From a candidate division WOR-3 bacterium (GTDB lineage Bacteria > Hydrothermota > Tepidihabitantia > SM23-42): a stretch of DNA of 64,000 bases. The DNA lies in the NCBI GenBank assembly GCA_027026255.1, contig JALVOT010000017.1, forward strand, positions 177,670 through 241,669. Direction: 5' to 3'. The notes under the pieces were generated by a model. That model was not told where the DNA came from. It ran no database searches and saw only the letters and a list, made by a program, of their open reading frames with translations. How positions within the stretch are numbered: position 1 is the stretch's first letter; every line of letters begins with the position of its first letter. Below, piece after piece: positions 1,976-36,331 of the stretch. A program made the position numbers and the translations under genes.

Positions 1976-1991
1976 AACCAGAAAAGAGAAA

Positions 1992-2026
1992 AGGGGCAGG
2001 ATAGAAAATCCTGCCCCTTTTTTTTC
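1992..2026. terminator. Bidirectional intrinsic terminator between convergent genes.
   Basis: AGGGGCAGGAT-agaaa-ATCCTGCCCCT followed by T8. The same hairpin has an A-tract on the other strand. Confidence 0.8.
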
Positions 2027-2040
2027 AGTAAATTCCTGTA

Positions 2041-3840: not shown

Positions 3841-3855
3841 TTTGCCTCCTTTCTT

Positions 3856-6465
3856 TTATTTCAAAAAAACTGCCTTTCTCGCCACGGCCTTGCTGTCTCT
3901 TTTCAGTTGTATAAAATAGACGCCGGCATTTTCGAGTGAAAAACTATATTCATAAGCGCCCGGGCTGAGTACCTTCTGAATAAAATCAATCTGCCTTCCT
4001 GATATATCGTAGATATCCAACCGTATTTTACCGCGAGATTTTAAAGTAAATCCAACCTTAAGAATTCCTTTCTGAGGTGAAGGAATATTAAGAGAGGCGG
4101 AAATCCCTTTTTCTTTATAGGCTTCAATTCCTGTAAGATATTCACGAATTAGATAGACACCGTCAGATTCATCTGCAAGATAAAGCATACGGCCGCTACA
4201 GGCGAGATTGACAGCATTGCCAAAAGACTCCATATATCCAATTTCCCTTGGATTTAAGGAGTCTGAAACATCAATCATCCTGACACCTTCAAAACCATCA
4301 GCCACAAAAAGACCATCACTCAGGAGCACCTTATTGGCAGTGCCCGGCGTATCAAGAGTGCCAAGCTGTTCCGGATTTACAGGATCGGAAATATTAAATA
4401 TCTTTATCCCGCGTCCACCGTCAGCCAGGTATATTAGATTATTTTTTAATACCAGACCCCGGGTAATGCCGTTTGTATTATAAAAACCGATCTCAACCGG
4501 AGCGGTGGGATCTGCGACATTTACCACCCTTAATCCCTTAGTTCCATCTGCCACAAAAGCAATGGTATCTCTTATTACAACATCATAGGCCTGTCCCGGA
4601 CTATCATACCTGCCTTCAAGTGATGGATTAGACGGCCTGGAAATATTAATTATAACAACCCCTGAAATTCGGCAGGCAGCATAAGCATAATTTCCGGAAA
4701 CGCAAATCGCCATTGGCTGGTCAACATTTAATCCCAGTTTTCCCACCTGGGCTGGATTGGTTGGACTGGAAATATCAATTACCCGAAGAGTATCTTCCTG
4801 GTCCAGGACATAAAGGTAAGAACCCGATGCCGCCAGGGCGACACTATTTCCTGGCAGAGCCAGATGATAGACCTCATCAGGCAGACTTGAATCAGAAAAG
4901 TCTGCAACCAATAAACCATCGGTTCCGTTCACAATATATGCATAATTCCCTGACAACACAAGTGCCTTTGCTGAATGAGGCAAACCATAGTGTCCAACCA
5001 GTTTCAGATTCGAACTATGTGCCGGAAAAGTTGATTGAATTTTATTAAAACTTCCGTCTGCAGCGAGCTTCTGATTTGAACTATTTAATCCGGCAATATT
5101 AATTCGGAATACAGAATCTATATCTGGAGCTACCCACAGATATTTACCCGTATTAGAAACATTATCCTTAATAAGCGTCCAGTTAAGAGAATCATAACTC
5201 GAAGATTGCCTGCCAATTGAATACCAGATTTTCAGATGATCAATATCCGAACCAGTTGTTGACCATTTAATCCAGTATTTCAGGTCCTTAAAAACAAATC
5301 CACCCCGGGGAAAATCGAGAAATATATTATCATTCACTGAACCGCCCGGGACAAATGTGACCACATAGTCATTAGAATATGTCCCCTGATAGTAAGTCCA
5401 GAGATTCCAGTACGGCTCGCCGCTCCAGCCCCAGGTAGTATGAACCTGCACAAATGTATCAGGCGGCTCAATCAGATAGCCTATTCCGGTCAAACAATGA
5501 TGGATGAATTGATTTCCATAATAATAATATGAAACCGCCCAGACGCAGGGTCTTCCTCCATCAATCTCATCCTTTAACCAGGAAAAGACCCATTGATTCC
5601 AGGAACTACCCTGGGATGATGTTAAGCTGTTGCAGGAATAGCCATTTACAGAATTAGCGACTGTTATCATACCGGGTTTTATATTGCTGATATAGGTTCC
5701 CCCGGTCATTGAATCGGTATTCATTGCCAGGGCAAGTTCCTTGGCAACATTAACACATTCCTTCCACTGGCTATAAGGTGGGTCATAACGGGTAAAATAG
5801 AAATCAACAAGCCGACCATAGCCGCGCGAATCCCAGTATCCGAAAATCATTGATGCCGATGTCGGACAACAGCCATAAACCCAGTCCTGGAAAGGAACTC
5901 CGGAAATATAAGCCGAATCCTGACGGGTTGTAAATGATGGAGTATTAAAATATCTTTCCCATTTTTCTCTGGTTAAAAGTTCAAGCGCTTTATCAGATTT
6001 AATCCGGGATTTTAAATCCCCTTTATCTATTTTTTTAAGTGTGGCTGAATTAATTAGAATTTCTTTATCCTGACATTTAAATCCGCAATATTCTTCACCC
6101 GGACCAAAATAGTATACCCTTTGAAATTGAGGTTCCATTTTAAATTCTTTCCTTGCCGCATTCAAAATTTTATCATAACCGGTTTTAAATCCTGGTAAAT
6201 CAAATGAAATCTCCCCAATCGGGGATGATGTCCATCTTGCACCCATTACAATATTTATAATATGATTATTAATGTTTTTATAAATCATCGCATAAGCATT
6301 TGGTTTATCATCAATACCGTAATAGGTCACTATCTGGTCCAGTTGATAATTACCAAAGCGTTCATTAATGAATTTTTCAGAAAGCGCCTTAACTTTTCCA
6401 AAAGGGATGAAATCTGAAGCAAAACTTAAACAAAAAATCATCAACAGCATAACCGCCTTTTTCAT
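3856..6465 (-). CDS. Peptidase C10 (streptopain/PrtT-like) domain fused to an LVIVD-repeat beta-propeller and a T9SS C-terminal sorting domain.
   Basis: 869-aa ORF with a signal peptide. The active-site Cys region is GCCPTSASMIFGYWD (compare GCVATAxAQIMKY of C10 peptidases) and the downstream signature is VHTTWGWSGEPYW. Repeated GxYxYxxxxxxGLxVIDISxPxxP units are LVIVD-like. The C-terminal CTD is GVYFIQLKRDSKAVARKAVFLK. Confidence 0.7.
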   Translation of the reverse strand: MKKAVMLLMIFCLSFASDFIPFGKVKALSEKFINERFGNYQLDQIVTYYGIDDKPNAYAMIYKNINNHIINIVMGARWTSSPIGEISFDLPGFKTGYDKILNAARKEFKMEPQFQRVYYFGPGEEYCGFKCQDKEILINSATLKKIDKGDLKSRIKSDKALELLTREKWERYFNTPSFTTRQDSAYISGVPFQDWVYGCCPTSASMIFGYWDSRGYGRLVDFYFTRYDPPYSQWKECVNVAKELALAMNTDSMTGGTYISNIKPGMITVANSVNGYSCNSLTSSQGSSWNQWVFSWLKDEIDGGRPCVWAVSYYYYGNQFIHHCLTGIGYLIEPPDTFVQVHTTWGWSGEPYWNLWTYYQGTYSNDYVVTFVPGGSVNDNIFLDFPRGGFVFKDLKYWIKWSTTGSDIDHLKIWYSIGRQSSSYDSLNWTLIKDNVSNTGKYLWVAPDIDSVFRINIAGLNSSNQKLAADGSFNKIQSTFPAHSSNLKLVGHYGLPHSAKALVLSGNYAYIVNGTDGLLVADFSDSSLPDEVYHLALPGNSVALAASGSYLYVLDQEDTLRVIDISSPTNPAQVGKLGLNVDQPMAICVSGNYAYAACRISGVVIINISRPSNPSLEGRYDSPGQAYDVVIRDTIAFVADGTKGLRVVNVADPTAPVEIGFYNTNGITRGLVLKNNLIYLADGGRGIKIFNISDPVNPEQLGTLDTPGTANKVLLSDGLFVADGFEGVRMIDVSDSLNPREIGYMESFGNAVNLACSGRMLYLADESDGVYLIREYLTGIEAYKEKGISASLNIPSPQKGILKVGFTLKSRGKIRLDIYDISGRQIDFIQKVLSPGAYEYSFSLENAGVYFIQLKRDSKAVARKAVFLK

Positions 6466-6570
6466 AATAATCTCCTTAAATTGTTTCCCGAAAAAAACAA
6501 TTTTTTCTCCATAAACCCCCTGTTCTAATCGGGGTGTGAAGGTATTTTACCTTCACACCCCGGAATTTCC

Positions 6571-7686
6571 CTAAAATTCTATACTCAATCCAAGTCTATG
6601 CGTCGCCTTAAGAATTCCCTTATTCATATATGCATAATCAATACGAAACCCTGTATTACCGGTTTTCACATTAAACCCAACCCCGGCGGTAAGATTATTA
6701 AGCAGCCACTCGGTTTTATCACCCCAATTATAACCGGTTGTCTCATTCGTTGTGGTATCAATTATCGGTTTGCCACCCGTCATCGCCTTCACATAATCAA
6801 TATTCAAATACATCTTGTAACCTGCCCTTAAGAAAAATGTATTGAGATAGGCATATTCAAAACCGAGATTAATTGTTTCGTAATTATCATTAGGATGATT
6901 AAGGTCTAAATCCATTGTCAACCGGGATGACTCATTAGAAATAGGGTCAAATGCCAGACCAAATCGGAATATCAGAGGTAAAGGATACGGTGTGGTCTTG
7001 TAAGTACTCGGTATCGGTTCATAATCAAGTGGGGAATCTGGAAACGGATTTTCCGCAAACTCCAGGTTCCGACCGCTGAAACTTATATCCGAACCGAAGT
7101 TGCTCATTGCCGCAGCAATCTTAAGGCCTTTAAACCCGGTATTATAATGAATTCCAAAATCAGTTGCAATACCGGTTGCGGTCATACTCCAAACAATTTC
7201 CTGGACTCCCTTAATGGTTAATCCTGCTGCGAGTCGATCCGTGAACATTCGACCAAATGATATACCAACGGCAAAATCCGAAGCATTAAAATAAGTTCCT
7301 GTTCCGGTATCCTCACGAATGGTCGTATTGGGATTGTCAACCCCGGTAATCTCCATCTTTCCCATTGTTAATGCCGTCACACTTAATCCCATCGTTCCAA
7401 AATTACCCAGGGGCAAAGCTGCAGTCAGATAGTCATGACGAATATCCGCAATCCATTCATTATGCTGAAGACTTATCTGTCTCTTCTCAATTGTTCCCAA
7501 TCCAGCAGGATTCCAGTAGGTCGCTGAGGCATCATCAGCAATCGCAACAAATGCCTCGCCCATTGCTGCACCCCGACCTACACCAATCTTCAGAAACTGA
7601 GCACCTGAAGTCCCCAGTTTTGCAAAGTCAGCATAGAGGGGCAACATTAAAATCAAGAGTAGGCTGATGTATTTTATCCTTTTCAT
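6571..7686 (-). CDS. PorV/PorQ-family outer-membrane beta-barrel protein (T9SS-associated).
   Basis: 371-aa ORF with a signal peptide. The N-terminal motif is AKLGTSGAQFLKIGVGRGAAMGEAFVAIADDASATYWNPAGL. The C-terminus ends in aromatic residues (EF). Confidence 0.55.
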   Translation of the reverse strand: MKRIKYISLLLILMLPLYADFAKLGTSGAQFLKIGVGRGAAMGEAFVAIADDASATYWNPAGLGTIEKRQISLQHNEWIADIRHDYLTAALPLGNFGTMGLSVTALTMGKMEITGVDNPNTTIREDTGTGTYFNASDFAVGISFGRMFTDRLAAGLTIKGVQEIVWSMTATGIATDFGIHYNTGFKGLKIAAAMSNFGSDISFSGRNLEFAENPFPDSPLDYEPIPSTYKTTPYPLPLIFRFGLAFDPISNESSRLTMDLDLNHPNDNYETINLGFEYAYLNTFFLRAGYKMYLNIDYVKAMTGGKPIIDTTTNETTGYNWGDKTEWLLNNLTAGVGFNVKTGNTGFRIDYAYMNKGILKATHRLGLSIEF

Positions 7687-7695
7687 TCTAACCTC

Positions 7696-10662
7696 CTATC
7701 GAACAACAACAAATTTGCCAACCTGTTCACCGACATCAGATTGAATATGGAAGACATAAACACCGCTCGCAACCAGCTGATGATTCTCACTCAATAAATC
7801 CCATTCCTCATCGCCGCCTAAATCATTAATCACACCACCACCCGAACTCGCCTTATGACAAATTACCTTAACCAACTCACCATTCAAATTGAATATCCGT
7901 ATCGTACAATTCGAAGGCAAATTGATAAACCGCAACCGACGCCGTAAACTCGACTGCTGCCACTCGTTATGAATAATATACGGATTAGGCACCACCTTGA
8001 CATGTAAACTAAAAGTATCCACCGACGCAAATTCCCCGGGCACCGAATGAATCCTGAACAGCCCATTTGCCATCACCGGACTAAACTCCGTATTCGCATG
8101 GACCACCCAAACATCACCACTCCGCGGCAACTCATCTCCCGGCATCAACGGTCCGCCTCTTTTCAACCCCACGAGACCACCGCATATATACAGGAACTTC
8201 GTATTATACTGCGGAGCCGGACTACCATGCAACACCAGTGTATCTGAAAAACCGCGCAGCGACAGAAAACTCCAGCCATCCGCTAAAGTATCATTCAAAG
8301 GATCACCAGAAACCGGTCGATAAGGAGTAAAGTTAATCGTATCCCCGGCATTTAAATCAATCACCACCACACTGTTTGCGGTATTGCTCCCCGCTGTCGA
8401 AAACCAGTGCACCTCATAATCATTACCGCGATAAGGCCAAAAATTCCAATAATTGGCCCAGGCACCAGGTGTAGAAGGCACCAATAAACTCTCGGGATAC
8501 GAACCGGTCTTCACTTCAATCGCCTCAAATATCGACTTATCGGTCGGCAACAAATCCCGGACAAAATGTAAGCCTATACTCAAACCATTATAAACCGGAA
8601 ATGTATGCGGCACATCCAACGAATCATTAACACCAACCACCTTAATACTATCAATATGACCACCATCCGCATCCTCTAAATATCCCTTATAAAGAGGAAC
8701 AACCACAACCACCGTATCTGTATCATGAATAATTCTCACAATGCTCCAATCAATCGGCATAAGCTCCAACTGAATAATATCATCTTTCATCTCAAGCGGA
8801 TTCACAATACTCACATTAATACTATCTCCAAGCAGCTCATTACCATAAATCCGTTCCAACGAATACTCACCAGGAACTAAATTCGCCGGTTCACGCCTCG
8901 GCACAACCGGCACTCCACTCAAACCGCTCTCAAACCAGATTGGACGACCATACTCCTGACCCGACGAATCCACATCCTTTACTAAATTATAATCATAAGA
9001 AGTCACCGCATAATAATAAGTAAACCCATTGCGCACATCCTCATCCACATAAGAATGAACCAAACCCTTATCATCCGCATATATCCTTATCGATTCCGGT
9101 GCGGTCGTATCTTCAAAAACAATGTTGTTAAACAGGTCATAACGGCCAAGCAAGCTCCAGTCTCCGGTCTTCCCGGTCAAACTCTTCCAGACTCCATAAC
9201 CCTCAAAATCATACTGACGGTAAAATGTATCGGTTAAAGGCGTTCCCGGAATACTCACAATATCATAATAAGGATCAGGAGTATGTTCAGGGGCATTATC
9301 CCAAACCAGGGTCACCCGGGCATCACCGGGCACACAGGTTAAAGTCGGGGGCGGGGGCGGACCAGGCAGTAACCAGTTCTTATCATAGATAAATTGACAG
9401 GTATTATCAATATTTACCAGGGCGGTATCCGGGGTGCTGTATGTATCATGCCAGTAGGCAAGAATAATGCCGACCAGAATCGTCGCGACTGAATCCGGAG
9501 CAATGTCAAATGGTCCGCTGCACTGTAAAAACCTCTGATCATCTGGACCTGATGGTGCAGTGTCTACAAACGGCTCATAAACCATCGTCTTAAAGTTATA
9601 ACCGGCAAGGGTCACATACCGCTCATTATCCTTAGTCGGCTCAAGACTAAGTGTGAAACGTTTGAATGCGGTCATACCGAGCTGCGGTATCTCTGAAGGG
9701 TCGCGCCAGTCCGGGGTCCCATCAAGGTCAACATCCCACATTGAATCCGGCAGATTTGTTACATAATAAGAACTATCCCGTTCATACTGGTCAGGAATCC
9801 CGTCCTCATCCTTGTCCATATTCTCTTTTAAATCATAAGGACTCTGTAAATAATCATAACCGATTGTCCCGGGAAATTCACTCCAGCCGGCTTCTTTTGT
9901 ATCCTGCCATTGATAACCGAGGTTATCAACCCAGAGCGATTCTCCATCAACCACATACCATCGACCTACAATACCGGCGATGCGGTCATTGGCGCTTCCA
10001 GGGGACTCATTACCGATATCATTATCAGCACAGACCCCGAAGTAGCATTTTCGCAGGGTATCGCCTGAAACATTTCTCAACTCATATTTGATGAATATTA
10101 TATCCTGTGTTGTGCTCAAATTCCAGGCATAAACCGTTTGATAAATCACCAGACCAATCGGCCTTGTATCTCCCGGGTTATGTTGCGTTTTATCAAGGTC
10201 ATTGATTACACACCAGGAATCCTGATGAGATTTATTTTTCTGCGGCGGTTCTGCAGTGGTCCAGCCTTCAACCGGCGGGGGCCAGGTCTCAGGATACATA
10301 AAAATAATCGCATTGGGATCACTCTGGGACATACCTTTATCACCGGGGACAAATTCAGTCTCAGCGCCGGATGGACCATAACCGATTGAAACCAAGGTAT
10401 CACCGCTTGTTTGATCAATCGTTCCGAACCAGGGTCCAGCACCAAATACATAACTGTGGCGAGAACCTTTGGGCCACCATAGACCTGCTTTTTCACCCTC
10501 ACGCTGGCCAAACTTCCCAAAGTTTGAGACACACATCTCAACCTGGTTCACATTATGAACTTTTATCTGGAACTCACGACCTGCATCAGGATTTATAACC
10601 GCAGGTCGGGCTAAAGCAAAGACTACAATTGTCAAGATTGGAATTAAAACCTTCTTCATCAT
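7696..10662 (-). CDS. Large secreted protein with thrombospondin-type-3-like Ca-binding Asp-rich motifs and a T9SS C-terminal sorting domain.
   Basis: 988-aa ORF with a signal peptide. It contains DKDEDGIPDQYERD and DVDLDGTPDWRD. The C-terminal CTD is GVYVFHIQSDVGEQVGKFVVVR. Confidence 0.6.
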   Translation of the reverse strand: MMKKVLIPILTIVVFALARPAVINPDAGREFQIKVHNVNQVEMCVSNFGKFGQREGEKAGLWWPKGSRHSYVFGAGPWFGTIDQTSGDTLVSIGYGPSGAETEFVPGDKGMSQSDPNAIIFMYPETWPPPVEGWTTAEPPQKNKSHQDSWCVINDLDKTQHNPGDTRPIGLVIYQTVYAWNLSTTQDIIFIKYELRNVSGDTLRKCYFGVCADNDIGNESPGSANDRIAGIVGRWYVVDGESLWVDNLGYQWQDTKEAGWSEFPGTIGYDYLQSPYDLKENMDKDEDGIPDQYERDSSYYVTNLPDSMWDVDLDGTPDWRDPSEIPQLGMTAFKRFTLSLEPTKDNERYVTLAGYNFKTMVYEPFVDTAPSGPDDQRFLQCSGPFDIAPDSVATILVGIILAYWHDTYSTPDTALVNIDNTCQFIYDKNWLLPGPPPPPTLTCVPGDARVTLVWDNAPEHTPDPYYDIVSIPGTPLTDTFYRQYDFEGYGVWKSLTGKTGDWSLLGRYDLFNNIVFEDTTAPESIRIYADDKGLVHSYVDEDVRNGFTYYYAVTSYDYNLVKDVDSSGQEYGRPIWFESGLSGVPVVPRREPANLVPGEYSLERIYGNELLGDSINVSIVNPLEMKDDIIQLELMPIDWSIVRIIHDTDTVVVVVPLYKGYLEDADGGHIDSIKVVGVNDSLDVPHTFPVYNGLSIGLHFVRDLLPTDKSIFEAIEVKTGSYPESLLVPSTPGAWANYWNFWPYRGNDYEVHWFSTAGSNTANSVVVIDLNAGDTINFTPYRPVSGDPLNDTLADGWSFLSLRGFSDTLVLHGSPAPQYNTKFLYICGGLVGLKRGGPLMPGDELPRSGDVWVVHANTEFSPVMANGLFRIHSVPGEFASVDTFSLHVKVVPNPYIIHNEWQQSSLRRRLRFINLPSNCTIRIFNLNGELVKVICHKASSGGGVINDLGGDEEWDLLSENHQLVASGVYVFHIQSDVGEQVGKFVVVR

Positions 10663-10669
10663 CTACCTC

Positions 10670-13429
10670 CTAAAATCCAATGCCGATACCCAAACGCATT
10701 CTGAATGGGCCATTATGATTCCTGGGGTCAATATAGTAATCATTTCGCGCCGCAATATATGCCCGCTTCTGTTCATAAGGATTAATCAGACCATCGTGAT
10801 TATAATCAGCCTGGGGTGAGTAATGAGAACTCGCAATCGATATATAACCGAATTGCCCGATTGACGGTTCCGGGTCACCATGATTATCCGGCTCGCCCGT
10901 GGTTGAATAAACATCAATCACCTGGTCCGTATTGAACAGATTATATATCATACTCTCTAAGGTCAGATTCAACGGACCCAATTTGATTAACCTGCTGAAA
11001 CTCCAGTCGACATTCCAGTATCCAGGCATCCGCGCTGAATTTTCATCACCCAAACGATTTCCCCTCAAATCTTCAGGGGTATATGGATGACCAGAATGGA
11101 ATGAAAAGACCCAGGAACTATTCAGATTCTGTAAAGGGATAAAGAAAAAGTCCTCGGGTAAACTCAAATCGAAATTGGCGTTGACAATATGGCGCTCATC
11201 AAAATCGAGCCAGTAGTCGATAACCGGCGGTTCCACACCATAATAGTAGTTGTCATAATACCATTCACTTGCATAGGCAGCAGTGCCTTTGGCGAACTGA
11301 AGTGTATAAGTAATACCCAATGCCCACATATTCGACATACGCTTGCTAAGGGTAAATTCGAAGCCCTTCACATTCCCGTAATCGACATTCTTGAACTGGA
11401 AATAAGAAGTAGGCAGTGCAATCACCTCACGGATCTGGGAAAGGTCATAGATATCCTTAAAATAGGCGCTGAAACTGAACGCCATATCATCGGTAAGCTG
11501 GTCTTCCATACCAAATTCATACTTTACTGTTTTCTGCGGCTTTATAAAAACATTTCCGATAACTGCATTACCACGCGAAATCAGGGCTCGAATCACCGAG
11601 GTATCGGTTGAACTATACATATTATCGAGTGCCGGAAGCTGGAAATAGTGGCCATAATCAAAACGGAACTTCATCCGATCCGTAACCGGCAGAGAAAATC
11701 CCAGTCGCGGTGAAATTTTATAACTGCCCGGGGCATTAACCAGTGTATCATTCAAAAAATCACTTGGTTTCTTGAATGTGAATGCCTTGGGGTCGAAATA
11801 ATCAAATCGGAATCCGACACGGGCAATAAGCCCTTCAAAATCCATCTTATCCTGAATATATCCGGCAAGTTGAATCGGTGAACGGTCATAGTAATCCCAG
11901 AATGGATTGGATACCCAGGGAAGATTATTATCAAAGAATTTCATTCGGTATTGAATTACATCAAAACCGGACTTGAATTCATGAATTTTGCCCACTGAAT
12001 GGCTGATGTCGGCTCGAACCTGAAGGTTCTGATTCCACCAGTAGCGCCAGACCCGGTAATCTCCATAGGTATAATACATTCCTTCCACACCATAGGGGTT
12101 GTTGCGTAATGCTGCAACACCGCGGTTTGTGTATTGGGTATGATATTGCATCATACTATCAATTACAATATGGCGAATCATTGAATCCGGAGTTGCATCA
12201 TCAAGAAGTAAAGGAATCAGATGCTCTGCACAGAAACGGTAATCCTCATACCACGCCCGACCGGTTGAGTCTTCCCAGGCATAATCCCGATTTCCATAAG
12301 CCCTGTTATAATGGGTCCAGCCTCCTTTTACCGATACCAGAGTCTGGGCAGTTAACATATAATTAAAAGTCGCCGAGAGAATGGAATTTTTAATTCGACT
12401 CATCGGCATATGGTTAAAGTATTTCAGATTACCGCTTCTCCAGTAGACAAACTGCTCGCGGGAATTATGTGCCGATAAAGTAATCTTTCCCTTGGCATTG
12501 GGAAGATGATATGAGAACTTTGCCTGACTACGATAATCCATCCTTGGTGAAGGCACCCGATAATATGCCTCTACCCAGGAATCGGTAAGCATCAATTCGC
12601 CGGAAAGAAAATAGCGAAAGCGCGGAAGTTTTGGTACCGGACCACCCAGAGAAAGGTTATAGAGGTTATATCCATAGTTCAACTTATTTTTCCAGGCATC
12701 CACTGCTGAGAAGACCTCATCGGTCAAATATCGAAAATTGCCGGCGAATTTTGGTCCGCCTTCTTTGGTCACGATATTAACGACTCCGGAAAGTGCATCT
12801 CCATATTCTGCATCAAACCCACCGGTTTCAACATCAACCTCCTCAACCGCATTGGGACTGATTCGTGCCGATTGATATCCGGTATTCGGCACCTTGGTGA
12901 TAATACCGTCGACAAAATAGGCAACCTCATTACCGCGTCCACCCCGGATATGGGTACCAAGACCGCTCTGGACAACACCTGCCTGCAGGGTGATTACCTG
13001 GTTAATCGTCGTCACCGGAAGTCGCTCCATCTCTTTTGCCGTCACCGATCTTCGTGTGTGCACCTGGTCTCGCACAATTATTTCGCGCTCCGCCTCCACT
13101 GTAACACCTTTAACCGTAATCACCGTTGGAGTTAATTTGAAATTAAGTGCTGTAGTTTGATCTGTATTTACTACAACATTTTTGTAAGTATAGGGATCAT
13201 AACTTATGTATGATGCAGTAACCCGATATGTTCCGGCCGGAACATATAAAATTACAAACTCACCATTCTCGTCGGTAGCTGCACCCAGTTCACTCCCTTC
13301 GATAATTACATCTGCACCGATAAGGGGTTCCCCGGTCTCTTTATCGATAACCCGACCGGTGATCCTGCCAAATTCACCGGCAAAGAGGAAAACCCCGGCA
13401 ATAAGTAGACCAATTATTATCTTTTTCAT
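10670..13429 (-). CDS. TonB-dependent receptor, SusC/RagA-like, with an N-terminal carboxypeptidase-regulatory-like domain.
   Basis: The likely start is MKKIIIGLLIAG (a signal peptide). The CarbopepD_reg-like segment is GRITGRVIDKETGEPLIGADVII...ENGEFVI. A plug-like region follows, then a long beta-barrel ending in a C-terminal Phe. Confidence 0.6.
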   Translation of the reverse strand: MKKIIIGLLIAGVFLFAGEFGRITGRVIDKETGEPLIGADVIIEGSELGAATDENGEFVILYVPAGTYRVTASYISYDPYTYKNVVVNTDQTTALNFKLTPTVITVKGVTVEAEREIIVRDQVHTRRSVTAKEMERLPVTTINQVITLQAGVVQSGLGTHIRGGRGNEVAYFVDGIITKVPNTGYQSARISPNAVEEVDVETGGFDAEYGDALSGVVNIVTKEGGPKFAGNFRYLTDEVFSAVDAWKNKLNYGYNLYNLSLGGPVPKLPRFRYFLSGELMLTDSWVEAYYRVPSPRMDYRSQAKFSYHLPNAKGKITLSAHNSREQFVYWRSGNLKYFNHMPMSRIKNSILSATFNYMLTAQTLVSVKGGWTHYNRAYGNRDYAWEDSTGRAWYEDYRFCAEHLIPLLLDDATPDSMIRHIVIDSMMQYHTQYTNRGVAALRNNPYGVEGMYYTYGDYRVWRYWWNQNLQVRADISHSVGKIHEFKSGFDVIQYRMKFFDNNLPWVSNPFWDYYDRSPIQLAGYIQDKMDFEGLIARVGFRFDYFDPKAFTFKKPSDFLNDTLVNAPGSYKISPRLGFSLPVTDRMKFRFDYGHYFQLPALDNMYSSTDTSVIRALISRGNAVIGNVFIKPQKTVKYEFGMEDQLTDDMAFSFSAYFKDIYDLSQIREVIALPTSYFQFKNVDYGNVKGFEFTLSKRMSNMWALGITYTLQFAKGTAAYASEWYYDNYYYGVEPPVIDYWLDFDERHIVNANFDLSLPEDFFFIPLQNLNSSWVFSFHSGHPYTPEDLRGNRLGDENSARMPGYWNVDWSFSRLIKLGPLNLTLESMIYNLFNTDQVIDVYSTTGEPDNHGDPEPSIGQFGYISIASSHYSPQADYNHDGLINPYEQKRAYIAARNDYYIDPRNHNGPFRMRLGIGIGF

Positions 13430-29442: not shown

Positions 29443-29470
29443 ATTATAACTAAATTTTTTAATTTGTCAA
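29443..29470 (-). promoter_or_regulatory. Sigma70-type promoter in front of the kinase gene.
   Basis: On the minus strand: TTGACA - 16 nt - TATAAT. A GC hairpin (29487..29510) lies just upstream. Confidence 0.5.
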
Positions 29471-29564
29471 TGCCCAATAATATCCCGGGCCGGGGTGTGT
29501 GCCCCGGCCCAAAAGGAGAAGGTAGAAAAATATACATCTGCTGACCACCTTTACAGGAATCCCG

Positions 29565-30842
29565 TTACATTCGTAAAAAGGCTTTTACAACCGTTGGGTC
29601 AAGTTGTGTACCCGCTACCCTTTGTAATTCCTTTTTTGCTTCGATTCTACTGAACCGCTTCCGATACGGCCGATCACTTATCATTGCTGAATATGTATCA
29701 CACACTGAAAGAATCCTGGCATTTAACGGTATACGATTTCCCTTGAGTCCTGCAGGATAACCTCGACCATCCCAGCGTTCATGATGATAATGAATCCAGG
29801 AACGGATCGACTGCAGTTGAACCAAGGGTTCAATAATTCTGGCACTCTTTTCTGGATGCTGTTTTATTATCTTCCACTCATTATCACTAAGTGGTCCAGG
29901 CTTCTGTAAAATACTTTCAGGCACGGCAATCTTTCCAACATCATGGAGCAGTCCTGCATATCTGATTAACTGCAGTTCCCGTTCTGAAAAATCGAACGCC
30001 TTGCCCAGCTGAAATGACAGATTGGCGACCTGAAGTGAATGTCCCCTTGTGTAGCTGTCTCTAATCTCGATTGCCTGCACCAGGGCAAGCACCGACTCAA
30101 AATTCACCTCCTCTAATCTTTTAATAAACCGCTCCCGGTCAAGGGCAATTCCGATCTGTCTGCTGATACCGTTAATAAACTGAATTTCTTCTTTATTATA
30201 AGAAAACCGTTTATTAGAATACAATGTCAGAATCCCGACCGGGACTCCTCCCTTGGTGATTACCGGTGCAGCAATACAGGACTTAAATTGACCGACCAGG
30301 TCTCCATCATCTTTAAATAACAAAGGACCGCGATTATTCAGAATCGACTGCAGCAATCGCTCTTTTTGATTAATAATTATATTTTGAGAAAACTCCGGCT
30401 CAAGATTTTGCGATACAAGAAGATTTAAATTCCTGCCGTCCTTATTTATTACAAAAAGGCCGATTCCATCCGGGGACAGATTCTTTGACAGTTTCTCCAT
30501 AACCACATTCATTACACCATTATTACTAAAACTGGAAAGTATGGCCTGATCTACCTCCTGCAGGGATTTTAAACGCACCAGACTTTCTTGATGTTCCCTA
30601 ACCATCCTTAGAATAGCAACTATACCAATCAACCAGAGAATACTAATCCCGGAGAGACAGAAATTCAATAATAGATTAGTACTGTGTCTTCCATAGCCGC
30701 CTTCTATCCCTATCAACACCATAAATATCATCCCCAAGGCAATAAATATCCGGGCAATTCCCAGCCTCTTTCTAACCCGCAACAGGATAAATATACCGAT
30801 TGCCAATTCCAGGATAATTGAGATAAAAAAGGCTGACTTCAT
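29565..30842 (-). CDS. Membrane-anchored GAF-domain HD-GYP phosphodiesterase (c-di-GMP hydrolase).
   Basis: 425-aa ORF. The HD-GYP core is IRDSYTRGHSLQVANLS...LLHDVGKIAVPESIL...HHERWDGRGYP. Confidence 0.85.
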   Translation of the reverse strand: MKSAFFISIILELAIGIFILLRVRKRLGIARIFIALGMIFMVLIGIEGGYGRHSTNLLLNFCLSGISILWLIGIVAILRMVREHQESLVRLKSLQEVDQAILSSFSNNGVMNVVMEKLSKNLSPDGIGLFVINKDGRNLNLLVSQNLEPEFSQNIIINQKERLLQSILNNRGPLLFKDDGDLVGQFKSCIAAPVITKGGVPVGILTLYSNKRFSYNKEEIQFINGISRQIGIALDRERFIKRLEEVNFESVLALVQAIEIRDSYTRGHSLQVANLSFQLGKAFDFSERELQLIRYAGLLHDVGKIAVPESILQKPGPLSDNEWKIIKQHPEKSARIIEPLVQLQSIRSWIHYHHERWDGRGYPAGLKGNRIPLNARILSVCDTYSAMISDRPYRKRFSRIEAKKELQRVAGTQLDPTVVKAFLRM

Positions 30843-30860: not shown

Positions 30861-31061
30861 TCAGCTGGCAAATGCATAGACCCTTTGCCAGCCTATATCA
30901 TGGATTGAAACTATGCCGTTATAGAAGAGCCGCAGTTTCTGCTCAACCGAACTCTGTCTCAGTTTTAATACAATCATCTTATCATCTTTATATGCAATCT
31001 CACCCTGATACCGGGTTCCGTCCACCAGCCTTACCTCATACAGATGCAGTGCCTTCATCAT
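30861..31061 (-). CDS. Small protein of unknown function.
   Basis: The start is chosen at MMKALHLYEV, which is preceded by GGGGG and the stop of the upstream peptide gene. Confidence 0.4.
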   Translation of the reverse strand: MMKALHLYEVRLVDGTRYQGEIAYKDDKMIVLKLRQSSVEQKLRLFYNGIVSIHDIGWQRVYAFAS

Positions 31062-31071
31062 AACCCCCAGA

Positions 31072-31284
31072 TTAATCGATTGGCGGCGGCGGTTGAGGCG
31101 GTGGAATAATACCATCGGCATCCGAATCAGAATCAGCAAAACAGGAAACCGGGGTGAGCGCCTGAAGCACCGAGCCGACAACCGGCGCCTTCTTTACTGT
31201 ATTTATCTGCGGTGACTGAAGTCCGATACCCAGAACACCGCCCAAGAACAATACAATCAATAGATAGATTAAAAGATGCTTCAT
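31072..31284 (-). CDS. Small secreted Pro-rich peptide (70 aa).
   Basis: Signal peptide MKHLLIYLLIVLFLGGVLG, a strong Shine-Dalgarno AAAAGGAGG, and the C-terminal tail DSDSDADGIIPPPQPPPPID. The gene sits directly downstream of a sigma54 promoter. Confidence 0.6.
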   Translation of the reverse strand: MKHLLIYLLIVLFLGGVLGIGLQSPQINTVKKAPVVGSVLQALTPVSCFADSDSDADGIIPPPQPPPPID

Positions 31285-31309
31285 AAAAACCTCCTTTTAC
31301 ATACTTTAT

Positions 31310-31326
31310 GTGCAAAATCCGTGCCA
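31310..31326 (-). promoter_or_regulatory. Sigma54 (RpoN) -24/-12 promoter.
   Basis: The minus strand reads TGGCACG-GATT-TTGCA, a perfect match to TGGCACG-N4-TTGCW. It lies about 25 nt upstream of the small peptide ATG and is followed by an RBS. Confidence 0.75.
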
Positions 31327-31378
31327 GACCATTTTGTCTGGAATTTCAAGGTTTTGCCGAAAAAAGACAAACAAAAAA

Positions 31379-31395
31379 TGTGCCAAAATGGCACA
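31379..31395. promoter_or_regulatory. Palindromic upstream activator sequence 1 (candidate enhancer-binding-protein site).
   Basis: TGTGCCA-AAA-TGGCACA. This is a perfect 7-bp inverted repeat about 65 bp upstream of the -24 element. Confidence 0.55.
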
Positions 31396-31448
31396 TTTTC
31401 GGGCTGTTCTGTAAAGCATTGCAAACACTGCATTCACCAGATAGGAAG

Positions 31449-31465
31449 TGTGTCATTTTGGCACA
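31449..31465. promoter_or_regulatory. Palindromic upstream activator sequence 2.
   Basis: TGTGTCA-TTT-TGGCACA (one mismatch to site 1), about 135 bp upstream of -24. Another TGTGCCA half-site follows at 31468..31474. Confidence 0.5.
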
Positions 31466-31803
31466 TATGTGCCAGCAGCCCTGCAGTTTTTATGCCTGAA
31501 CCGGGCTGACTGAGTAATACTACCTACATATTTATTATGAAATCTCCTGAAATTTAAGCTTTTTCATTAAGGTACCCGCTTCTCTGATGACTTTACCATC
31601 ACAAAAGATTTATCCCCGGGTGTAATCACACATACCTGCCGGAACGACCGATATCCGGGCGAATTATTATCTTAAACCTCTCCCGGATTTCCTGACAATT
31701 ACTCTGCGGTGATTCTTCGCTGAATGACTTTTCTTTCTTTAATAGTCTGCTTCCGACTGAATTCTAAATTCAGGTGAATATCTCCGGTTATCAACCTGAT
31801 AGT

Positions 31804-31915
31804 CTGACTCCTCTCCACTTTTTGTCCTGGTTTTTTGTAAGCTATGTAGGTTACAATATAGCCGGGCGGCGTCTCGCCCCGAGGCGGGGACGCCGCCTTC
31901 GCTGAGAAAAATTGA
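31804..31915 (-). repeat. Repeat element copy F. It is a right-end stub in minus orientation.
   Basis: The reverse complement reads ...GCGGCGTCCCCGCCTCGGGGCGAGACGCC..CCGGCTATATTGTAACCTACATAGCTTACAAAAAACCAGGACAAAAAGTGGAGAGGAGTCAG. Confidence 0.75.
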
Positions 31916-31994: not shown

Positions 31995-34900
31995 TCAGTC
32001 GAAGGCGTTAACCTGTGGATGCCTGATCCTTTTTAATGATATCCATACCCTGTTGCCATTGATATCAAGGTCTTTATCTATTTCGCCCGTCTCTTTTTCA
32101 TCCATCGCCTCAATCACCTCAAGGGCAAGGGTTTCGTTTTTCAAATAATCAAGATTATTTATTATGGCATTCTTCAACCTTTCATCGGTTTGATAAAATA
32201 TTATGATGCGATCAACCAGGTTAAAATCCGCCTCTTTACGCAAAAGTTGAATCCTATGAATCAATTCCCGGACCAGACCTTCATCTTCAAGTTCCGGAGA
32301 TAACCGGGTATTGATACCAACCCCCAACTCCCTCTCTCTTACTACACTCCATCCCGCCTTTTCGACAATCACTACCTCAACATCGGTTTCTTCTATCCTG
32401 ACCTTCTTACCATTATAGTCTATGGTCAGAGATTTACTCTTCATAAATTCCTTAATCCTATCCGGACTGAGCGATTTGATAAGCTGGGCGATATTGCCAG
32501 CATCCCTGCCAAATTTGGGTCCGAGCTGGTCGAATCTGGGTTTAAGCTGGTAGGTGATGAGGTTATCCAGGGCACCGGGTTCGGCTGTTTTTATCCCCTT
32601 TACATTTAACTCCTCCTGAATGATTTTGATGTCGTCTTCTGACGGCCGGGGAAAACCATCCGGAATTTCAACAATCATCTCTTTAAGGGGCTGACGAATT
32701 TTGATTCTGACCTTATTGCGTGCGGAACGACCCAATGATACAATCTCCCTTGTTAACTGAACCTCATTTTCCAAATCTTCATCAATCATCTCTTCGCTGA
32801 CTTCAGGAAAATCATTAAGATGGATGCTAACTGGAGATTCCTTATCGACCCGGACCACTATATTCTGATAAATCTCTTCGGTTAAAAATGGCATTATCGG
32901 TGCGATAAGTTTGAGTAATTTAACAAGACATTCATATAACACGCAGTATGCATTCATCTTATCCTGGTCATTCTCAGATTTCCAGAAGCGTCTTCGGGTG
33001 CGCCGGATATACCAGTTGGAGAGCTCATCAAAGAACCGTTCGGTCTGCTTTACCACTGATACGACATCGTAATCATCATAAAATTTTTCACAGTTTCTAA
33101 TCAGGGAATTTAATCGCGAGAGTATCCAGCGGTCAAGTTTTGTAATACTATTTTTATCAACTTCTTTACCAGACGGGTTAAATCCATCGATATTGGCATA
33201 GGTGACAAAGAATGAATAGATGTTCCAGAAGGTTAAAAGGTTCCTCTTGATCTCTTTTGCCGGACCATAACCAAAATTTAAATTTTGAACCGGATTATGC
33301 CCGGCAAACATCCAGCGCATAACATCAGCTCCAATCTTCTCCGCCGCCTCCTCAAACCAGATTGCATTACCCTTGCTCTTATGCATCTCTTCACCGTGTT
33401 CATCCCGAATCAGGGCATGGCCTAAGAGCACCTTAAACGGCGGTTGTTTTTCCAGAACCGTGCTCATCGTAAGGATTGCATAAAACCAGTTGCGGAACTG
33501 CCCGGGAAAACATTCAGTAATGAAATCGGCCGGGAACCAATCTTTCCAGTAAGACTTATCATAAGGATAACCATTTTTTAGATTATGCATATCATCAGGC
33601 GGTCTGATGGTTGAATAAGGAACAATACCGGCATCAAGCCAGGGGTTACCGACATCAGGAATCCGGGAGACAAGTTTTCCACATTTTTCACACTTAATCT
33701 TTATCTTATCAACCCAGGGTCGGTGAGGTGAATGACCCTCAAATTCATCCCAACCTTGAATTGCTTTCTCTTTCAATTCATCCTTTGAACCGATAACTGT
33801 AAAATGGCCGCAGGAGCATTCCCAGATCGGCAGGGCAAGGCCCCAGTATCGTTTTTTCGAGATACACCAATCCGACATATTTTTTAGCCAGTCAAGTTCC
33901 CGGTCCAGACCGTATTCTGGAATCCAGCGTTCTACTTTTCTGGTAACCTCGGCAATTTCATAACGCAAACTATCCATTGAAATAAACCATTCATCAACCA
34001 AACGGAAGATTAATTCACTCTGACAGCGCCAGCAGATTGGGTAACGATGGGTATAATCTTCTACACTATACAGCTGTCCCTGTTTTTTCAAATCCTCAAT
34101 AATCGGATTGGCAACATTTTTTACATCCATATGGCTGAGCCAGTCGAAACCATCAACATAACAACCCAGCTCATCAAGAGGGGCAATGGTTGCCAGGCCA
34201 AATTCCTTACCCAGGGTAAAATCTTCTTTACCACAACCCGGAGCAATATGAACAAGTCCGGTTCCTTCTTCCTCACTGATTTCCTCCCAGGGTATTACCT
34301 TGTGCACTATACCCTTTTGCACAGGCAGATATTCAAAAGGCCCTTTATATGTTAAACCGATAAGTTTCTTACCGGGGAACTCTTCTAAAACCTGATAATC
34401 TCCTTTTAATACCTTTAATAGTTTTTTTGCCAGATAATATATCGCCCCATTATTTTTCACCTTTACATAGATGAGTTCCGGATGCACCGCAACCGCGGTA
34501 TTTGATGTCAGGGTCCAGGGTGTAGTCGTCCAGACCAGTAAATACTCCTGCTGCCGGCCGATAATGGGAAATCGAACAACCACCGCCCTGTGGGTCAACT
34601 CCTGATATCCTTCCGTGGCGATTTCCATATCACTTATTGCGGTTCCGCATCGTGCACACCAGGGCATAACATCCGCACCTTTATAGATCAATCCCCGTTC
34701 ATTACAGCGTTTTAGAAAATGCCAGATTGTATAATTATTTACATCACTCATCGTATAATAGGAATGGCTCTTCTCCATCCATTTTGGGTCATCAAGCGCG
34801 GTGAGCCATTCACCCCAGTCCATCCACATCCCCAGGCGGATTGACTGTTCAGTCTGTATCATTGAATATCGATGAGCCCGTTCCTTACATTTGCAGACAA

Positions 34901-35249
34901 ACTTATCAATACCGTATTTTTCAATATCCCGTTTTGAATTGAAACCGAGTTCCCTCTCCACTTCAACCTCAACCCAGAGCCCCTGACAGTCAAATCCATT
35001 CTGATAGCGTTGCTCAAATCCCTGCATTGTCTTATACCGCTGGAAGATATCCTTATAGGTTCTACCCCAGGCATGATGCACCCCCATCGGATTATTTGCC
35101 GTGATTGGACCATCCTGGAATGACCATTTTTTCTTACCCCTGTTCTTGTTTTTATATCTGGTAAAAATATCCTGACTATCCCAGAACTTGAGGATGCGAT
35201 GTTCGATTTCAACAAAGTTGAGTTCCCTGGGCACCTTATTAAAAAGCAT
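31995..35249 (-). CDS. ileS: Isoleucine--tRNA ligase, type 2.
   Basis: 1084-aa ORF with the HIGH-region variant PMGVHHAWGRTYKD, KMSKS as KMHKSKGN, and a zinc-binding C-terminal domain. A leaderless TTGACA-17-TATAAT promoter lies immediately upstream. Confidence 0.95.
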   Translation of the reverse strand: MLFNKVPRELNFVEIEHRILKFWDSQDIFTRYKNKNRGKKKWSFQDGPITANNPMGVHHAWGRTYKDIFQRYKTMQGFEQRYQNGFDCQGLWVEVEVERELGFNSKRDIEKYGIDKFVCKCKERAHRYSMIQTEQSIRLGMWMDWGEWLTALDDPKWMEKSHSYYTMSDVNNYTIWHFLKRCNERGLIYKGADVMPWCARCGTAISDMEIATEGYQELTHRAVVVRFPIIGRQQEYLLVWTTTPWTLTSNTAVAVHPELIYVKVKNNGAIYYLAKKLLKVLKGDYQVLEEFPGKKLIGLTYKGPFEYLPVQKGIVHKVIPWEEISEEEGTGLVHIAPGCGKEDFTLGKEFGLATIAPLDELGCYVDGFDWLSHMDVKNVANPIIEDLKKQGQLYSVEDYTHRYPICWRCQSELIFRLVDEWFISMDSLRYEIAEVTRKVERWIPEYGLDRELDWLKNMSDWCISKKRYWGLALPIWECSCGHFTVIGSKDELKEKAIQGWDEFEGHSPHRPWVDKIKIKCEKCGKLVSRIPDVGNPWLDAGIVPYSTIRPPDDMHNLKNGYPYDKSYWKDWFPADFITECFPGQFRNWFYAILTMSTVLEKQPPFKVLLGHALIRDEHGEEMHKSKGNAIWFEEAAEKIGADVMRWMFAGHNPVQNLNFGYGPAKEIKRNLLTFWNIYSFFVTYANIDGFNPSGKEVDKNSITKLDRWILSRLNSLIRNCEKFYDDYDVVSVVKQTERFFDELSNWYIRRTRRRFWKSENDQDKMNAYCVLYECLVKLLKLIAPIMPFLTEEIYQNIVVRVDKESPVSIHLNDFPEVSEEMIDEDLENEVQLTREIVSLGRSARNKVRIKIRQPLKEMIVEIPDGFPRPSEDDIKIIQEELNVKGIKTAEPGALDNLITYQLKPRFDQLGPKFGRDAGNIAQLIKSLSPDRIKEFMKSKSLTIDYNGKKVRIEETDVEVVIVEKAGWSVVRERELGVGINTRLSPELEDEGLVRELIHRIQLLRKEADFNLVDRIIIFYQTDERLKNAIINNLDYLKNETLALEVIEAMDEKETGEIDKDLDINGNRVWISLKRIRHPQVNAFD

Positions 35250-35398
35250 AGTAGTATTATATCAGATTTTTAATGACTGTCAAGTGCAACCTGGCAAAAG
35301 TTCAGCATCGGATATTTTCAGGACAATAACTTGATTATTATTTTGTAAGATAACAAATGAAAAAAAAGAAAAAAAAATCATTCCTTATTATTTATTAT

Positions 35399-35769
35399 TT
35401 AACTCCTCTCCATTTTTTTCATTGTGCCTCCCGGATTAATTGCAACGGTATTCTGGACAGAATAAACTTCTCTGAGATTATTAAACCAAGACGAAAAATA
35501 TTCAACAACTTCGTTTTACTTTGTATTTATTTGTCATTTGAAAAATTTCTCTACCATCTTCGCCCGGTTCCGTTTTTCTCAGCGTGGGCGGCGTCCCCGT
35601 TTTTTTCAGCGCGGGCGGCGTTTCCATTTTTTTCAGCGCGGGCGGCGTCCCCGCCGCCCGCTGGAGGTTTATCATTCTTACAGCCCGCCAGGCGCCCTGT
35701 CTCGGGGCGGGACGCCCCCGGCTATATTGTACTTACAAAAAACCGGGACAAAAAGTGGAGGAAAGTCAG
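35399..35769 (+). repeat. Repeat element copy B. It is full length and carries three tandem units.
   Basis: Left TIR ..AACTCCTCTCCATTTTTTT and right TIR AAAAAGTGGAGGAAAGTCAG. The internal sequence is about 90% identical to copy A. Confidence 0.85.
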
Positions 35770-35815
35770 CCTTATTATACCTTGACAACTAAAAAATTAT
35801 GAATAGAATCAGAAT

Positions 35816-36331
35816 ATGAAAGGGATATCAAGGGTGATTCTATTTAAATATTTGACTCCTCAAGAAGTAAACTGGATGCTGGTAAAATGGCAGCCCAAGG
35901 AAGTGCGTGAGGGCACGGTTATTATTAAAGAAGGAACAACCGGTGATGAGATGTACATTATTGAATCAGGTAAGGTCGAGGTCTATCTCACCCGGGGAGA
36001 TGTTGTGCTTCTTCTGTCTGAATTGCAAGAGGCATCATTCTTTGGGGAAATGACCCTGCTAACCGATAAGCCTCGTTCCGCAACGGTTAAGGCAAAAACA
36101 AATTGTCGGTTACTGATCCTGAAAAAACAGGAATTTATGAAAATTATTGATGAGAATCCCCGGATTGCAGCAAAATTTCTTATGGCAATGGGTGAAGACC
36201 TTTCCAATCGAATAATGGCGACCAATGCCAATTTAGAAAATTATTTTCTGATAAATCAGGCGATTGTCGATAACAAATCCTTTCGGGATCTTTATATCCT
36301 TACCCATAAGGCCCCATCGTCTAGCGGTTAG
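35816..36331 (+). CDS. Cyclic-nucleotide-binding domain protein.
   Basis: 171-aa ORF with the cNMP-binding signature (FGEMTLLTDKPRSATVKA). There is no obvious DNA-binding HTH. The 3' end overlaps tRNA-Glu. Confidence 0.7.
   Translation: MKGISRVILFKYLTPQEVNWMLVKWQPKEVREGTVIIKEGTTGDEMYIIESGKVEVYLTRGDVVLLLSELQEASFFGEMTLLTDKPRSATVKAKTNCRLLILKKQEFMKIIDENPRIAAKFLMAMGEDLSNRIMATNANLENYFLINQAIVDNKSFRDLYILTHKAPSSSG

Follow-up and report, generated by a model that had tools for sequence, protein, structure and literature searches.

A sigma-54 (RpoN)-dependent promoter, the activity of which would depend on an enhancer-binding protein (EBP), is very probably present in the intergenic region that follows ileS in a candidate division WOR-3 bacterium. 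The region lies in a 64,000 nt stretch of contig JALVOT010000017.1 (assembly GCA_027026255.1, positions 177,670 to 241,669 of the forward strand), referred to here as the window and numbered from its first base; it corresponds to scaffold_39 of ENA assembly ERZ23491057, and a 242-kb contig carries the locus as well. The elements of interest are on the minus strand, and are mostly given with descending coordinates. The sequence TGGCACGGATTTTGCA, at 31326..31311, agrees perfectly with the sigma-54 -24/-12 consensus, reproducing TGGCACG-N4-TTGCA exactly, with the GG (31325-31324) and GC (31313-31312) dinucleotides one helical turn apart within TGGCAC-N5-TTGCW. This is the only perfect instance of TGGCAC-N5-TTGCW in the window, against 0.03 expected from dinucleotide-preserving shuffles, 3 of 100 of which contained one. 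A strong ribosome-binding site, AAGGAGG, begins 14 nt after TTGCA, within the 26 nt separating TTGCA from the ATG of the first gene (14-32 nt in relatives), and transcription is predicted to start near 31300. The promoter and the paired sites upstream of it, as read from the sequence, are composed of the following parts.

31326..31321, minus strand: TGGCAC, first part of the promoter
31320..31316, minus strand: GGATT, spacer of the promoter
31315..31311, minus strand: TTGCA, last part of the promoter
31296..31290, minus strand: AAGGAGG, ribosome-binding site of gene 1
31284..31282, minus strand: ATG, start codon of gene 1
31395..31379, minus strand: proximal candidate activator site TGTGCCATTTTGGCACA, a perfect palindrome (TGTGCCA-TTT-TGGCACA)
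31465..31449, minus strand: distal candidate activator site TGTGCCAAAATGACACA, with one mismatch (TGTGCCA-AAA-TGACACA)

When up to two mismatches are permitted, these are the only two occurrences of the palindrome pattern in the 64 kb, compared with 0.14 expected. From centre to centre the sites are separated by 70 bp; measured from the -12 G, the proximal one lies 74 bp and the distal one 144 bp upstream, which places them at approximately -87 and -157 relative to the predicted start. This is the layout expected of upstream activator sequences (UAS), in which two or more dyad-symmetric sites are found some 70-200 bp before the promoter. An initial annotation of this DNA, which described a perfect sigma-54 promoter ahead of the ribosome-binding site and the ATG at 31284, together with two palindromic upstream sites of the form TGTGCCA-N3-TGGCACA, is in both respects borne out. 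The window contains two further matches to the promoter with a single mismatch, one in a coding sequence at 3508 and the other the proximal palindrome itself. The first, part of a combination of TGTGCCA and near-promoter matches at 3508-3581, is attributed to chance as it falls inside a 599-aa coding sequence; the second, TGGCACATTTTTTGTT, was rejected as a promoter, the GC of the -12 element being missing and the match not being kept in relatives. With two or fewer mismatches allowed, the window yielded no further credible sigma-54 promoter.

Seven minus-strand genes follow the promoter, encoding a 70-aa protein, a 65-aa protein, a GAF-HD-GYP protein, a PAS histidine kinase, a stand-alone receiver, an MshEN-domain protein and PilT. 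Under the proposed mechanism, EBP dimers would bind the two 17-bp palindromes and assemble into an AAA+ ring, which would contact the closed sigma-54 holoenzyme at TGGCAC-N5-TTGCA by DNA looping and open the promoter through ATP hydrolysis. The transcript beginning at about 31300 would carry the first three genes, the first of them encoding a secreted proline-rich product, the second an Sm-like one and the third the GAF-HD-GYP protein, and would most likely end at 29514..29483.

Recurrence and conservation of the arrangement

One genome from each of 185,579 species was scanned for the palindrome TGTGYCA-N3-TGRCACA separated by 35-65 nt from TGGCAC-N5-TTGC, which identified 58 loci where approximately two were estimated to occur by chance, the choice of pattern biasing the result towards the TGTGCCA type of palindrome. 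One group of these loci came from metagenome-assembled genomes (MAGs) of WOR-3, Stahlbacteria and TA06. When 15 of them were aligned, the invariant columns were almost exclusively those of the two palindromes and the -24/-12 hexamers, and two alignments and an anchored comparison of 23 promoters all found the promoter to be kept at orthologous loci while the flanking sequence diverged. The proximal site is centred 84 to 86 bp, and the distal site 156 to 158 bp, upstream of the -12 G in 14 related loci, the second palindrome being 70-73 bp further upstream than the first and some loci having a third. In the window and in its sister species, both sites are 11 bp closer (-74 and -144), a displacement of about one helical turn that keeps the 70-bp spacing and is of the kind permitted by the face-of-helix constraint on an activator that acts by looping.

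The genes downstream of these promoters are homologous to genes 1, 2 and 3 of the window, the gene 2 product of the relatives being 64 aa long. At the WOR-3 loci the same kinase and receiver genes then follow, with 58-63% and 70-73% identity, respectively, and in Stahlbacteria each locus holds a pair of such promoters with separate palindromes for each, one ahead of the gene 1-gene 2 pair and the other ahead of a gene 2 paralogue and an HD-GYP gene. The closest relatives, representing the sister species (L062-L065), have a gene 2 with 81% identity and a gene order identical through PilT and the acyl-CoA dehydrogenases; their promoter (TGGCATAGATTTTGCA) and the spacing are conserved, as is the AT-rich stretch that precedes the -24 element. 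Both of their palindromes read (T/A)GGGACAAATTGTCTCA rather than TGTGCCA-N3-TG(G/A)CACA, and this GGGACA/TGTCTC type is absent from the 64-kb window. The replacement of both copies in place suggests that the operon was handed over to a different paralogous activator, and supports the view that sequences at these two positions are likely to be functional.

The same palindrome pattern was also found in other phyla. In MAGs of Lentisphaerota, Victivallales, Kiritimatiellia and Opitutales, perfect sigma-54 promoters lie directly upstream of dnaK (MSKIIGIDLGTTNS…) or clpB (L015, L019), 41-43 or 61-64 nt after TGTGTCA-N3-TGGCACA and with several extra GGCACA half-sites nearby, and a Spirochaetaceae MAG (L059) has the same layout before hsp20. 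These chaperone loci (L003, L004, L007, L009-L011, L014-L016, L019, L022, L024, L026, L029, L036, L037, L041, L044, L045, L047, L053-L056, L058 and L059) were each inspected over 8 kb, within which no EBP was found. In Planctomycetota and Bacteroidota, chaperone genes have been predicted to be preceded by sigma-54 promoters (PMC12316311), and no description of the palindrome at such loci, or of the phyla listed here, was found in the literature. In Firmicutes (Erysipelotrichaceae, L012 and L025; Clostridium, L050 and L060), the same palindrome outline accompanies a perfect sigma-54 promoter before phosphotransferase system or dehydrogenase genes, at loci adjoining LevR-like or 656-aa EBPs; L012 and L025 also carry rpoN. 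At Hydrogenophaga and Bosea loci (L023, L031 and L032; Betaproteobacteria) the palindrome, again accompanied by a perfect sigma-54 promoter, takes the form TGTGCCAGATTGGCACA. The occurrences in Firmicutes and Betaproteobacteria imply that TGTG(Y)CA-N3-TG(R)CACA is used by unrelated EBPs.

The predicted activator and alternative explanations

At a number of the related loci (L006, L013, L018, L020, L028, L034, L035, L046, L051 and L070), an EBP gene ends just upstream of the palindromes. The encoded proteins carry the motif ESELFGH(K/R)KGAFTGA and the domains Sigma54_activat, AAA_lid_14 and HTH_8, and those that are full length comprise 1,540-1,660 aa (typically about 1,630), in which a protein kinase domain (Pkinase), a STAND NTPase (AAA_16, AAA_22 or nSTAND3), TPR modules and a GAF domain precede Sigma54_activat and HTH_8. 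Members of the family, where their source is named, usually come from WOR-3 or Stahlbacteria, with one from a MAG labelled Theionarchaea, and several JGI records label them "Nif-specific regulatory protein". A genome may have several paralogues, as in WOR-3 bin77 (CP070664), which has two, and the palindrome type differs from one paralogue to the next while its distance from the promoter does not. When the EBPs were classified by the third helix of the helix-turn-helix (HTH) domain, and the palindromes at the same position compared, the following pairings emerged.

Class A: helix GIGRR(S/T)(L/M)HRY; palindrome TGTGCCA-N3-TGGCACA; L006, L018, L020, L035, L046
Class A': helix IGRTSIYRY; palindrome TGTG(C/T)CA-N3-TG(G/A)CACA; L013, L028, L034, L051
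Class B: helix GINRKTIQRY; palindrome GCGACA-TTT-TGTCGC; L069
Class C: helix VTRRTIYKY; palindrome GTATAC-N3-GTATAC; L067, L068

For three further proteins (at loci L070, L071 and L072), the palindrome was predicted from the helix class before the flanking DNA was seen, and all three predictions were confirmed. The class A protein P0033 was accompanied by TGTGCCAAAGTGGCACA and TGTGCCAGAAAGGCACA; the class B protein P0048 by GCGACT-TATA-TGTCGC and GGGACA-ATCA-TGTCGC; and the class C protein P0059 by GTATAC-TAA-ATATAC and GTATAC-TTT-GTATAC, centred at -157 and -86. This correspondence between helix and palindrome is the strongest argument for treating the palindromes as predicted EBP binding sites, and from it the activator of this window is predicted to have a helix of class A or A'. 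By analogy with the relatives, the activator is most likely to be a giant protein of about 1,630 aa, combining kinase, STAND, TPR, GAF, sigma-54 AAA+ and Fis-type HTH domains and acting in trans, with a recognition helix expected to read (L)GIGRR(S/T)LHRY or IGRTSIYRY.

The initial annotation had also proposed that no rpoN or EBP gene is in the window and that the regulator acts in trans, of which the first stands and the second is supported. In the 64 kb, no GAFTGA-like or RpoN-box motif turned up in any of the six frames, no tblastn match to the EBP of a relative was better than E = 0.11, and no EBP was found in the 10 kb beyond the window start, which together imply an activator encoded elsewhere; ileS stands here where relatives have the EBP gene. 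A precedent for action in trans is provided by the WOR-3 loci L008 and L043, at which the same palindromes and promoter precede HD-GYP, kinase and receiver or regulator genes with no EBP in the approximately 4 kb upstream. Likewise, the chromosome of WOR-3 bin77 harbours two operons of the TGTGCCA type, one adjoining an EBP gene that an assembly gap interrupts (L035) and another that includes kinase and receiver genes (L021), together with a paralogous EBP that has GCGACA-type sites (L069). The presence of rpoN in the genome under study is likewise expected from the sigma-54-type EBPs of related genomes. Conservation, fixed geometry, the EBPs adjoining the sites in relatives and the pairing of helix with palindrome all support the classic EBP architecture that had been suggested.

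Several observations nevertheless weigh against this reading. The distal palindrome is imperfect; neither the window nor the adjoining 10 kb encodes an EBP or RpoN, and the candidate EBPs that were traced to their samples, P0033 and P0055, both came from other metagenomes; the helix-palindrome pairing is based on only two to approximately six loci per class, all of them in relatives; a simple scan flags 31400..31374, which spans the proximal palindrome, as terminator-like; and the different palindromes of L062-L065 mean that, with palindrome types switching between close lineages, the identity of the EBP is less certain than its existence.

A different kind of EBP in this genome, such as a compact NtrC- or NifA-like protein acting on the same promoter and sites, is the one live alternative, although an improbable one. 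The absence of a local EBP, the origin of the traced candidates and the switch of palindrome in the sister species all leave room for it, as does the occurrence of the same palindrome pattern in Lentisphaerota, Firmicutes and Betaproteobacteria; the EBPs involved there must be of other types, one example being the 656-aa Clostridium EBP with the helix MSRSTLYRKI. However, the EBPs that could be read upstream of TGTGCCA-type sites in WOR-3, Stahlbacteria and TA06 are without exception members of the giant family with a class A or A' helix, and the genes regulated are the same family-specific genes.

It is much less probable that the palindromes are bound by a regulator other than an EBP, either of the CRP/FNR type or a repressor dimer, with the true enhancer elsewhere or absent. 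The outer bases of TGTG…CACA resemble those of CRP-type sites, and a cyclic nucleotide monophosphate-binding protein is encoded about 4.5 kb away (35816..36331), but the half-sites are separated by nine bases (TGTG-N9-CACA) rather than the eight of CRP sites, and this protein, 165-171 aa in length, has no DNA-binding domain on record. Furthermore, the palindrome type tracks the HTH helix of the adjacent EBP, as the three successful predictions attest, and the positions at -85/-156 or -74/-144, phased by one turn, suit activators that act by looping.

A role for the palindromes as RNA hairpins, for instance as terminators of upstream read-through, is highly improbable. The flagged sequence at 31400..31374 forms a 12-pair stem with a T-rich tail, and the inverted repeat remains symmetrical even where its sequence differs from one lineage to another; yet only 4 of the 12 pairs are G-C, and the T-run is not conserved, L020 reading …GGCACACATGGG and L008 …GGCACACTATTGAG at this point. 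The half-site sequence is also invariant across phylum-level distances, over which a hairpin would be expected to drift with compensating changes; the two or three copies recur at 70-73 bp intervals in register with the promoter; and ileS ends 500 bp upstream with a GC-rich hairpin of its own. The proximal palindrome was therefore rejected as an intrinsic terminator on the basis of its AT-rich stem, its unconserved T-run and the placing of the copies in promoter register. Finally, a chance match or a decayed relic devoid of present function, which the lack of a nearby cognate EBP, the imperfect distal site and an operon adjoining ileS rather than an EBP gene might suggest, can be put aside as a negligible prospect, given the very low numbers of such promoters and palindromes expected per window, the correct order and phase of all the elements upstream of intact conserved genes, and the fact that in the sister species the promoter and a pair of palindromes still occupy these places.

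Probable transcription unit and neighbouring elements

The genes and signals surrounding the promoter are as follows.

31072..31284, minus strand: gene 1, 70 aa, with a hydrophobic signal or anchor at the N-terminus and a C-terminus rich in proline (…PPPQPPPPID); no Pfam family
30861..31058, minus strand: gene 2, 65 aa; no Pfam family
29565..30842, minus strand: gene 3, 425 aa, membrane-anchored GAF-HD-GYP protein with intact HD and HHERWDGRGYP motifs
29514..29483, minus strand: GC-rich hairpin of 13 pairs after the HD-GYP gene
29470..29443, minus strand: perfect sigma-70-type promoter (TTGACA-16-TATAAT, 12/12 match) ahead of the PAS histidine kinase gene
35249..31995, minus strand: ileS, the upstream neighbour

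Relatives have homologues of gene 1 in the equivalent place. Gene 2 is part of a small family of 30 clusters, in which all of the matches with a named organism come from WOR-3 and residues D13, G14, Y17, G19, E20, I21, G48, I49, S51, G56 and W57 are invariant. The AlphaFold model of its product is a five-stranded beta-barrel (pLDDT 83), the best Foldseek matches of which are Hfq proteins (TM of about 0.6, E of about 3e-3), weakly suggesting an Sm/Hfq-like protein. Gene 3, orthologues of which follow the same type of promoter in relatives, is likely to encode a phosphodiesterase of cyclic di-GMP (c-di-GMP). As the hairpin following gene 3 is in turn followed by a sigma-70 promoter matching at all 12 positions, the sigma-54 unit most likely consists of the first three genes only and ends at the hairpin, before the kinase gene; the kinase, response regulator, MshEN and PilT genes are probably a separate transcription unit. 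The HD-GYP target, a GAF-GGDEF gene adjoining a paralogous EBP (L069), and the nearby MshEN and PilT genes point to c-di-GMP signalling as the output, possibly linked to type IV pili.

Other elements of the intergenic region were examined through the same alignments, the two blocks being semi-conserved.

31474..31468, minus strand: extra half-site TGGCACA; joined to the left half of the distal palindrome, it reads TGGCACA-TA-TGTGCCA
31341..31336 and 31329..31324, minus strand: inverted repeat CCAGAC-AAAATG-GTCTGG, with a spacer of six bases and a right arm overlapping the -24 TGG
31336..31350, minus strand: AT-rich block CTTGAAATTCCAGAC, directly upstream of the -24 element (23-promoter comparison, two alignments)
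31418..31437, minus strand: block GTGAATGCAGTGTTTGCAAT, midway between the palindromes (15-locus alignment, 23-promoter comparison)

The first two had been listed in the initial annotation as accompanying the promoter, and in each case the sequence is present and the role is not upheld. The extra half-site is absent from relatives of the -85 type, with TGGCAC kept at the aligned position in the sister species, making a function for it doubtful. The inverted repeat, which has a spacer of N6 and not N7 as described, was rejected as a functional hairpin since its left arm falls in the conserved AT-rich block, its right arm in the -24 element, and the complementarity between them is not kept in relatives; it is probably incidental. 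The AT-rich block has the family consensus ccCGAAATTTCAAGAC, often holds the palindrome GAAATTTC and occurs irrespective of the type of the activator-site palindromes, while the family consensus of the block between the palindromes is GCAAAYGYARTATTTnCAA; the two may be sites for a bending protein, a second regulator or another accessory factor.

Further upstream than the distal site, a block at 31485-31530 (minus strand; TAGGTAGTATTACT…CAGG…AAAAA) is conserved in the sister species (L062-L065) despite different upstream neighbours, these being ileS here and a Por_Secre_tail protein in L062-L065. It lies roughly where a third site would be expected (about -214), but is not a palindrome of the same type. 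The ileS gene itself ends about 500 bp upstream of the proximal palindrome, and is followed by the GC-rich hairpin GGCGGCGTCCCCGCCTCGGGGCGAGACGCCGCC at 31865-31905 (minus strand). A spurious open reading frame at 35357-35785 (plus strand) translates to the short repeated motif SAWAASPFFSARAAFPFFSARAASPP, indicating that the underlying DNA is repetitive, and in a genome of approximately 42% GC this repeat and the ileS hairpin may represent a family of REP-like repeats. Elsewhere in the window, positions 1-10700 encode several large secreted proteins with the Por_Secre_tail C-terminal domains of the type IX secretion system (T9SS), as well as a protein with weak matches to FadL/Toluene_X-family Pfam entries that is taken to be PorV-like; such gene content is in keeping with an origin of the window in the FCB group or a WOR-3-like lineage.

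Significance and comparison with known systems

Computational surveys have predicted sigma-54 regulons across phyla, identifying -24/-12 promoters and EBPs in little-studied groups and linking sigma-54 to the cell exterior and to signalling (PMC12316311; PMC3162934); the survey from 2025 makes no mention of HD-GYP or c-di-GMP (PMC12316311). Among the papers covered by a full-text search, none treated WOR-3 together with sigma-54, and only unrelated ones appeared when TGTGCCA/TGGCACA was combined with sigma-54 or EBP terms; the kinase-STAND-TPR-GAF architecture of the EBP had no match among these papers, with earlier descriptions elsewhere being possible.

For an organism that has no cultured representative, 190 bp of intergenic DNA can be given a confident annotation consisting of a predicted promoter, two putative activator sites and a three-gene unit including a likely c-di-GMP phosphodiesterase. 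The comparison also brings to light, in WOR-3, TA06 and Stahlbacteria, a family of sigma-54 activators of great size and kinase-STAND-TPR-GAF architecture, the sites of which are readable from the genome and change with the recognition helix; this wider family with its private palindromes is a more interesting by-product than the feature of the window itself, and offers testable pairings of helix with DNA and a means of assigning regulons to paralogous activators in uncultivated bacteria. The chances are about even that these findings describe a c-di-GMP circuit specific to the WOR-3, TA06 and Stahlbacteria lineages, in which paralogous EBPs of about 1,600 aa recognise private 17-bp palindromes at a fixed position and operons are rewired by swapping the palindromes in place. 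A swap of this kind is seen between the TGTGCCA type found here and the GGGACA/TGTCTC type of the sister species, which share the same promoter and spacing. The proposed circuit, if true, would show in a compact natural system how the recognition helices of Fis-type domains determine the DNA sequence that is bound, and would be an unstudied case of giant sigma-54 activators that integrate signals. None of these findings alters how sigma-54 mechanisms are understood.

The arrangement resembles that of enterobacterial NtrC-activated promoters of the glnAp2 type, in which a -24/-12 element is preceded by two strong dyad-symmetric sites approximately 100-150 bp upstream. These sites nucleate an AAA+ oligomer that acts from a distance by looping to the sigma-54 holoenzyme, and the same is proposed here. 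In contrast to NtrC, the likely activator at this window is not a receiver-domain response regulator, and its targets would be involved in c-di-GMP turnover, not nitrogen assimilation. The domain order of the relatives' EBP, with GAF before the sigma-54 AAA+ and Fis-type HTH domains, and the TGT…ACA outline of the sites, are shared with NifA, the activator of nifH, and with NorR-type EBPs, although the relatives' protein is about three times larger and has an N-terminal protein kinase, a STAND NTPase and TPR modules. Its closest solved cores are those of NifA (the best PDB match, E = 3.8e-76), ZraR and the Aquifex NtrC-family regulator 4l4u, while its DNA-binding domain is closest to that of Aquifex NtrC1 (4l5e, E = 3e-6), followed by NtrC4 (4fth, E = 4e-3).

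The sequences of the sites are distinct from those of the classical systems. NtrC sites have the consensus TGCACC-N5-GGTGCA, from which TGTGCCA-N3-TGGCACA differs, and the NifA UAS has the consensus TGT-N10-ACA, compared with TGT-N11-ACA here; both assignments were rejected, the comparison with known NtrC and NifA sites that the initial annotation had suggested showing no agreement in sequence and spacing. The Aquifex aeolicus proteins NtrC1 and NtrC4 are receiver-domain response regulators, unlike the giant EBP of the relatives. NtrC4 is reported to have two sites near -145 and -85 upstream of lpxC, a layout resembling that described here and best regarded as an unconfirmed lead and not as a test. 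The architecture of the region is that of the classical NtrC, NifA and NorR enhancer design, with different site sequences.

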